DNA from: an uncultured Clostridium sp.
Lineage (GTDB): Bacteria > Bacillota > Clostridia > TANB77 > CAG-465
Reading direction: 5' to 3'
DNA length: 64,000 bases
Assembly (NCBI GenBank): GCA_947361355.1
Contig: CANAIR010000007.1
Span: forward strand, 733-64,732
The position numbers were made by a program, and so were the translations under genes. The notes under the pieces are model-generated. The model saw only the letters and a list, made by a program, of their open reading frames with translations. It was not told the DNA's origin and did no database searches. Below, in pieces: positions 61,860-61,971 of this stretch. Numbering within the stretch: position 1 is the first letter of the stretch; each line of letters begins with the position of its first letter.

Positions 61860-61971
61860 CATGCTGTGGGGCACACAGTCTAAGCGAGTGGTAGCTTGAA
61901 TATAAGTATGCTCGAAGTCTAGAGATAGATATGTCACAAAAGCAACCCATAGGGCGTAGAAAAATTCTATG
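61860..61971 (+). ncRNA. Conserved structured RNA or leader (copy C), 70 nt upstream of tnpB
   Basis: Almost identical to 231-319. The last hairpin has a different sequence but still pairs (TAGAA 61957-61961 with TTCTA 61965-61969). Confidence 0.6.

Follow-up and report, generated by a model that had tools for sequence, protein, structure and literature searches.

Features of the locus

The window, that is the whole 64-kb stretch of DNA that was analysed, carries a block of about 115 nt in triplicate (232-345, 29131-29245 and 61861-61971; copies A, B and C), corresponding to a direct-repeat family, D1 (232-364, 29131-29263 and 61861-61993), with an identity of 79-100%. The unit made up of the promoter and a ~75-nt RNA with three hairpins spans 187-343, 29091-29245 and 61815-61972. 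Each RNA copy is preceded by the best-scoring sigma-70-like site of its region, in agreement with an earlier, sequence-only reading of this DNA, which had placed three copies behind a TTGAYT-17-TGnTAYAAT promoter. The site equivalent to the promoter of copy C is kept in all of the relatives that carry the RNA upstream of tnpB. The features of the three copies are listed here with their matches to R1, a covariance model built from the six closest upstream copies (window clade only).

187..215, + strand: promoter of copy A, TTGATT-17-TATAAT with TG before the -10
235..319, + strand: copy A, putative scaffold (235-308) and guide position (309-319); R1 match 233-322, E=7e-26
29091..29119, + strand: promoter of copy B, TTGATT-17-TATAAT with TG before the -10
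29134..29218, + strand: copy B, putative scaffold (29134-29207) and guide position (29208-29218); R1 match 29132-29221, E=6e-27
61815..61843, + strand: promoter of copy C, TTGACT-17-TGnTACAAT; 10/12 matches with TG, top promoter-like site in 61600-63400
61864..61937, + strand: putative omega-RNA scaffold of copy C, with P1 hairpin, long P2 hairpin, P3 hairpin and AUGUCAC end; R1 match 61862-61951, E=9e-27, and covariation
61938..61948, + strand: predicted guide position of copy C, AAAAGCAACCC, equal to the terminal 11 nt of the arms with one mismatch
61946..61972, + strand: CCC-N-GGG pairing and hairpin UAGAA/UUCUA between the RNA and tnpB; weak, terminator- or attenuator-like
62042..63202, + strand: tnpB, 386 aa, with RuvC residues D204/E288/D367 and four zinc-finger cysteines intact

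Only copy C has tnpB on its 3' side, lying 93 nt upstream of the gene on the same strand, and the earlier description of the RNA as encoded 5' of tnpB thus applies to this copy and not to copies A and B, which lack the gene. Downstream of copy A comes a split PDDEXK_2 gene, and past copy B about 600 nt precede spoIIIAA; neither copy has tnpB downstream, and both solo copies retain the promoter, the RNA and ~135 nt of leader. No remnants of tnpB were found elsewhere in the window by tblastn, and a decayed tnpB in the right part of unit B was ruled out, the tblastn signal being absent there.

After the 11 nt of the guide position a CCC pairs with a downstream GGG and is followed by a hairpin, with a U-run in the relatives L040, L054, L057 and L060; the ribosome-binding site of tnpB lies 50-90 nt beyond that hairpin. 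The window has no promoter-like site at least as strong in the interval from the RNA to tnpB, and in L054, L057 and L060 only 50-60 nt, with no other promoter, separate the RNA from the start codon. As no equally strong promoter-like site intervenes, the RNA would also form the 5' leader of the tnpB mRNA.

The TnpB protein

The protein matches the Pfam families HTH_OrfB_IS605, OrfB_IS605 and Cas12f1-like_TNB above their cut-offs, and the closest natural protein of solved structure is ISDra2 TnpB (E=2e-40). The catalytic residues D204, E288 and D367 and the zinc-finger cysteines C338, C341, C357 and C360 are invariant amongst 13 members of the family. For the tnpB genes that have the RNA upstream, dN/dS is 0.14-0.17 with dS above 1, and across this divergence the RNA has kept an identity of 79-89%. 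Judged by these comparisons, the TnpB protein, the promoter and the RNA are all maintained. No tnpA is present near the window tnpB.

An identical TnpB protein occurs in 21 metagenome contigs at one constant locus, tnpB-pgi-traX. Those metagenome contigs that were listed all start 21-117 nt before tnpB, either within the RNA or just past it, which would be expected if the RNA were multi-copy and tnpB were not.

Fold and covariation of the RNA

All members have a common layout of P1 (CUGUG-GGGCA-CACAG), an AGC-containing junction, a long P2, AA, P3 and a (U/G)AUGYCAC end, and the fold that is supported by the homologues consists of P1 (CUGUG/CACAG), P2 and P3 (GUCUA/UAGAU). In the 10-sequence model alignment 94% of the cells are paired and 17 of the 22 pairs show double changes, a number matched in 0/500 shuffles, and slid controls of the same ten sequences collapse. 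The same number of pairs, 17/22, is again compensatory in 16 true homologues, outgroups included (alignment A7 minus two spurious rows), and the count made by the tool on all 18 rows with four pseudoknot pairs added is 19/26; all of these figures come from alignments that were fitted to the covariance model and are biased toward the structure. A 4-bp pseudoknot between the loop of P1 (GGCA) and the UGYC before the end of the scaffold, paired in 16/16 sequences with G-U, G-C and A-U variants, is a further candidate element. The fold would be strand-specific, because many of the pairs are G-U. The thermodynamic z-scores are weak (-0.7 to -1.4), and the evidence for the structure is the covariation between sequences, not folding stability.

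Several of the substitutions between copies that had been picked out from the sequence alone are found as described: G257:C284 is replaced by A29156:T29183, the apical stem changes from GCUUG/UAAGU to GCCUA/UAGGU, and the last hairpin differs in sequence in copy C with its pairing kept. The proposed pair C251:G293, on the other hand, falls outside the fold supported by the homologues, where C251 lies in the junction between P1 and P2 and G293 in the loop of P3. An outer closing stem given by RNAalifold for the three window copies is likewise lost in the relatives.

Position of the RNA in relatives

The promoter and RNA are found before tnpB in six relatives, with TnpBs that are 74% (L040), 73% (L050), 67% (L047), 53% (L054), 52% (L057) and 51% (L060) identical to that of the window, so that the upstream RNA is seen in at least three lineages beyond the window's own (TnpB 50-74% identical). 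In L055, L056, L061 and L062 the homologous sequence lies after tnpB and there is no RNA upstream; the TnpBs of this downstream type form one clade amid several upstream-type lineages and make up 88 of the 120 best TnpB homologues. Outgroups were provided by 80 TnpB loci from viral contigs, with 30-39% TnpB identity. The matches of R1 to relatives and outgroups are as follows.

L054: RNA upstream of tnpB, E=6e-8
L060: RNA upstream of tnpB, E=2e-4
L057: RNA upstream of tnpB, E=3e-4
L061 (sister clade): RNA downstream of tnpB, E=6e-4
L079 and L075 (outgroup): RNA 27-70 nt past the tnpB stop codon, E=3e-4 to 7e-4
L087, L078, L072 and L080 (outgroup): RNA 27-70 nt past the tnpB stop codon, E=0.02-0.06

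Matches over the full length of the model lie directly 3' of tnpB in L061 and at least 13 outgroup loci, the E-values of the distant homologues being modest and the calibration of R1 rough. No second R1 match is present downstream of the window tnpB. In some of the outgroup loci the coding sequence of an IS200-type tnpA lies just upstream, and these are therefore ordinary IS605 elements. With the RNA downstream in the outgroup IS605 elements, the downstream position would be the ancestral one in this TnpB family and the upstream position derived. An origin of the upstream layout by tandem insertion, circle permutation or deletion was considered, and no scenario fits all of the features.

By sequence homology, the RNA is a relative of the omega-RNA scaffold rather than a new class. 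The sequence-only reading had offered two guesses, a cis leader or an unrecognised partner RNA; the latter is the better of the two as far as the partner is concerned, though as a homologue of omega-RNA scaffolds the RNA is not unrecognised.

Exact-pattern scans of genome contigs with two anchors returned chance matches only, those of viral contigs chance matches or none, and that of metagenomes only the same two loci in other samples. The RNA matched nothing amongst plasmids and phages by blastn. The public assemblies of L030-L039, L050-L053 and L062-L065 break inside the RNA on its tnpB side, which suggests that the RNA module exceeds tnpB in copies per genome, in genomes with the RNA upstream and downstream of the gene alike.

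Inverted arms and the units that they bound

An inverted pair of 20-nt sequences, AGGGTTGGTTTTGTAAAAAA and TTTTTTACAAAACYAACCCT, bounds unit B (28971-29738) and unit C (61717-63258). Allowing three mismatches, GGTTGGTTTTGTAAAA occurs 13 times in the window against an expectation of 1.85, and seven of these occurrences are arms. The arms and associated repeats are as follows.

54..73, + strand: left arm of unit A
18458..18477, inverted copy: solo right arm, with the ~250-nt 'right module' of unit B and without the RNA
28971..28991, + strand: left arm of unit B, 2 nt past the SNF2 stop codon
29718..29738, inverted copy: right arm of unit B
61654..61698, + strand: extra arm (61654-61673) with terminator hairpin (61664-61698), a stand-alone palindromic repeat right after the amidase stop codon
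61717..61738, + strand: left arm of unit C, GGGTTGGTTTTGTAAAAAAA
63241..63258, inverted relative to 61717..61738: right arm of unit C, TTTTACAAAACTAACCCT

Only 0-5 nt lie between the arms and the stop codon of the gene before them, and some arms by themselves form terminator hairpins. Members of the family are present elsewhere, in L047 (1718-1733 and 5783-5817) and L057 (42-240). Copies free of cargo, with neither RNA nor tnpB, are exemplified by a doublet in L057 (200 bp), a hairpin terminator in L047 (35 nt) and an intact palindrome in L060 (53 bp), and arm-type copies without RNA or tnpB are also seen in L040. Other doublets enclose 0.2-1.8 kb of cargo, consisting of the promoter and RNA, tnpB or a Spo0E-like gene. 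From their sequence and placement the arms behave like a REP/REPIN- or MITE-type repeat family. They resemble such repeats in being short inverted doublets capable of forming hairpins, multi-copy, intergenic after stop codons and terminator-like; they differ from them in that some doublets enclose cargo and that no RAYT or other transposase for the arms was identified amongst the neighbours of tnpB. Small ORFs of the FYKTNP type were ruled out as an explanation of the arms by a stop codon in that frame in unit C.

Between tnpB and the right arm, L057 carries a Spo0E-like gene of 53 aa (2755-2916) and L060 a second copy of the promoter box (2660-3160).

The proposed guide position and its match to the arms

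Outgroup scaffolds that are nearly identical end in AUGUCAC and then diverge, continuing as AUGUUAAAAC in L078, GUACAAAAAU in L080 and AGAACAGCAU in L087, and the pairwise similarity of L088 to L087 and of L072 to L085 stops at the same AUGUCAC. The window RNA has this end too, reading UAGAUAUGUCAC and then, across the boundary, AAAAGCAACCC followed by GUAGGG. As the outgroup scaffolds end at AUGUCAC, the 3' tail of the window RNA would be the guide position, with the native guide beginning AAAAGCAACCCGUAGGG. A reading of this tail as belonging to the scaffold, or as mimicking the transposon end, was also considered, and was dropped once the outgroup scaffolds were seen to end there.

After AUGUCAC the three window copies share one sequence, to which those of L040, L047 and L050 are nearly identical; only in the outgroups is it variable. 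The first 11 nt of this shared sequence correspond to the last 11 nt of the 20-nt arms, which read TTTTTTAC followed by AAAACCAACCC, with 10/11 matching in the window. The match is 11/11 in L054 (AAAACUAGCCC), L057 (AAAGCUAGCCC) and L060 (AAAGUUAGCCC), where the arms differ from the window arms in just the way that the guides do. On this comparison the putative guide and the arms change together across lineages, although separate insertions into the repeats of each host, rather than selection, could account for this. In the window the one mismatch is at guide position 5, inside the likely seed, where the guide has G and 7/7 of the window arms have C; targeting of the arms may thus be impaired or avoided in the window clade. 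In the sister clade, of downstream type, drift has left the guide with an indel and one or two mismatches to the arms, and the guide could therefore be a fossil of an old insertion into a palindrome.

TTTAC or TTTAT stands before the arms in every case, and TTTAT is also found at the left boundary of one outgroup pair. It is plausible from the arms and this pair that TTTAY is the TAM. When genomic targets were sought for the sequence after the CCC (GTAGGGAATAGAG onwards), only the RNA copies themselves matched.

Comparison with known systems

The omega RNAs of TnpB are described as lying downstream of the gene, with an upstream position only for the RNAs of the IscB type (PMC10691335, PMC10705468), and the sequence-only reading was right to regard the position before tnpB as unusual. 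The guide RNAs of TldRs are also encoded downstream of their gene (PMC10705468). No report of an omega RNA upstream of tnpB was found in the titles and abstracts of the papers listed by full-text literature searches for one.

A TnpB omega RNA consists of a scaffold followed by a guide of ~16 nt, which derives from the DNA flanking the element and varies between copies. The window RNA resembles the omega RNA (reRNA) of the ISDra2-type TnpBs of IS200/IS605 elements in lying on the same strand as, and adjoining, a TnpB with intact RuvC and zinc finger, in having a scaffold homologous, in sequence and in structure, to the 3'-position RNAs of its relatives and in its guide starting after AUGUCAC. 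In contrast to that RNA, it is encoded upstream with its own promoter and has no overlap with the 3' end of the gene or the right end of a transposon, its guide is constant instead of variable flanking DNA, and there are solo copies without tnpB and no tnpA nearby. It is therefore lacking in two features customary for omega RNAs, the 3' position and the flank-derived variable guide.

With TldRs it may have in common a fixed guide directed at a conserved genomic sequence, with only short complementarity being effective, ~11 nt here and 9-11 nt for the oppF type (PMC10705468). TldRs, however, have lost RuvC residues, whereas the D-E-D triad is invariant in the window TnpB family, and the target of a TldR is one promoter while the apparent target here is a dispersed palindromic repeat. 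The omega RNAs of IscB and IsrB (HEARO) are also encoded 5' of the nuclease gene, but the protein here is a TnpB, its RNA is a homologue of the omega RNAs of TnpBs, and no match of the window RNA to HEARO was obtained in the Rfam cmscan. The Rfam families IS605-orfB-I (RF03065) and IS605-orfB-II are similar in being structured RNAs near IS605 orfB (tnpB), and the sequence-only reading had allowed that the RNA might be one of them. Although RF03065 is present in Rfam 15, cmscan of the window, of copy C and of eleven homologous loci gave nothing relevant: copy C matched no family either at the gathering score or with the cut-off relaxed to E<=10, and the eleven loci matched none at E<=0.1, so that this identification is not borne out. 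An IStron or group I intron was ruled out, with no Rfam intron match and with units that are intergenic and have their own promoter, and a search of the window for repeats showed no CRISPR repeat-spacer array near 61-64 kb.

Interpretation

We consider it probable that the RNA is the omega (guide) RNA of TnpB in a non-canonical layout, encoded 5' of the gene, driven by its own promoter, with a fixed guide and with solo copies that lack tnpB. From the one promoter a transcript would be made that carries the scaffold, the fixed guide and the weak hairpin or terminator, and then tnpB. TnpB would bind the 5' leader of its own mRNA, and the RNA would be trimmed to the scaffold and a short guide. 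A role for these 11 nt as guide is one that we infer from their sequence, in which case the complex might recognise TTTAY together with the 11-nt sequence of the arms. Copies A and B would be derivatives of the arm-bounded unit that lack tnpB and may supply the same RNA in trans. As the match is of only 10-11 nt, binding would seem likelier than cutting, by analogy with the oppF-type TldRs and the long-form tracrRNA of Cas9. The guides of the oppF-type TldRs are of 9-11 nt, and the same paper describes the long-form tracrRNA of Cas9 (PMC10705468).

A number of other explanations bear on the same features. Were the RNA purely a cis-acting 5' leader, attenuator- or riboswitch-like and without any guide function, the hairpin or terminator would gate read-through into tnpB. 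This would fit the place of the RNA within the 5' UTR of tnpB, the hairpin and U-run that follow it in L040, L054, L057 and L060 and the want of an equally strong promoter-like site between the two, and in the physical sense the cis leader proposed in the sequence-only reading stands, as the RNA does lead into tnpB. As a sole role it is improbable, however, since in relatives the same RNA comes downstream of tnpB and can have no leader role there, the promoter and RNA persist in solo copies A and B with no tnpB to lead into, and no cis-regulatory family of Rfam is matched. An equally slender chance is given to the RNA being the decaying right end (RE), with its omega RNA, of an IS605-type mini-element that was once inserted into a palindromic repeat beside tnpB, in which case the hairpins would be transposon-end DNA and the RNA and guide disused. 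The resemblance of the guide to an old flank, the repeat arm, would be accounted for in this way, as would its mismatch in the window and drift in the sister clade, the lack of tnpA nearby and the single fixed locus of tnpB in 21 metagenome contigs. Decay is hard to reconcile, though, with a promoter, scaffold and arrangement kept in at least four lineages with TnpBs only ~50% identical, an RNA that is 79-89% identical although synonymous sites are saturated, substitutions that are compensatory with many strand-specific G-U pairs, and a tnpB under purifying selection with its active site intact.

That the RNA comes from a separate, multi-copy small-RNA gene, with a MITE-like repeat carrying this trans-acting regulator and only accident placing it next to tnpB, is very improbable. 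Two of its three copies do lack tnpB, and public assemblies break inside the RNA, as expected of a multi-copy sequence; yet every homologue found adjoins a tnpB on the same strand, at loci that span 30-100% TnpB identity, and its 3' end is common to the canonical omega RNAs.

Within the preferred reading of an omega RNA in a non-canonical layout, a more far-reaching proposal, which we put forward as possible though doubtful, is that a nuclease-competent TnpB has been rewired to a stand-alone, promoter-driven guide-RNA gene that outnumbers tnpB in copies and has a hard-wired guide of ~11 nt against genome-wide REP-like palindromic terminators. If so, the complex would bind the arms beside TTTAY and, depending on the degree of the match, might either block or regulate read-through where many genes end, or nick or cut 'empty' palindromes, with the RNA and tnpB cargo spreading between copies of the repeat. 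Either outcome would represent an intermediate between guides that are bound to a transposon and guide-RNA genes that are free of one.

The family departs from the TnpB guide RNAs that have been described in the promoter of its own before the gene, the frozen guide and the match to a dispersed palindromic repeat. It would offer a natural case in which to see the path from a transposon-bound guide to an independent guide-RNA gene, a transition that also happened en route to CRISPR and TldR, to ask if a TnpB with intact catalysis binds rather than cuts at short matches, and to follow the interplay of RNA-guided nucleases with REP-like repeats. It would also provide a compact, promoter-defined scaffold of ~75 nt with a clear boundary between scaffold and guide.

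Other repeats and features nearby

Immediately before the RNA promoter, at 141-186 and 29045-29090, there is a conserved box (TGCAAAATAATGTCGTGTTTTGTCAACCGATTG), and upstream of the -35 in L047, L057 and L060 there is a palindrome similar to GCGATCGA. From its sequence and position the box may be an operator. Downstream of copy A, the PD-(D/E)XK_2 gene (Rpn/transposase_31-like) is split into two ORFs, at 560-745 and 793-1524.

The repeated module of ~250 nt is present at 29489-29739 and 18190-18478, with a partial inverted copy at 1558-1595, and in L040 at 2470-2620. It is made up of a small ORF (MNKLHTG(V/A)M...), a strong terminator-like hairpin (GAACCTAGTTAAGGGAAG and CTTTAGCTAGGTT, followed by Ts), a second small ORF and the right arm. 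Within its small ORF a (CA)n microsatellite of ~14 units (18222-18250) could shift the frame.

Further repeats of the window include adjacent, near-identical segments (221 nt at 96% and 134 nt at 84%) at 38575-39561, over tandem paralogous ORFs of 157 and 163 aa, and a repeat of ~150 nt with 83-91% identity whose copies, at 49562-49709 and 60378-60523, are 10.8 kb apart. At 6918-7071 and 7328-7479 there is a tandem duplication, ~410 nt apart and with 88-96% identity, that includes the starts of two small ORFs on the minus strand.
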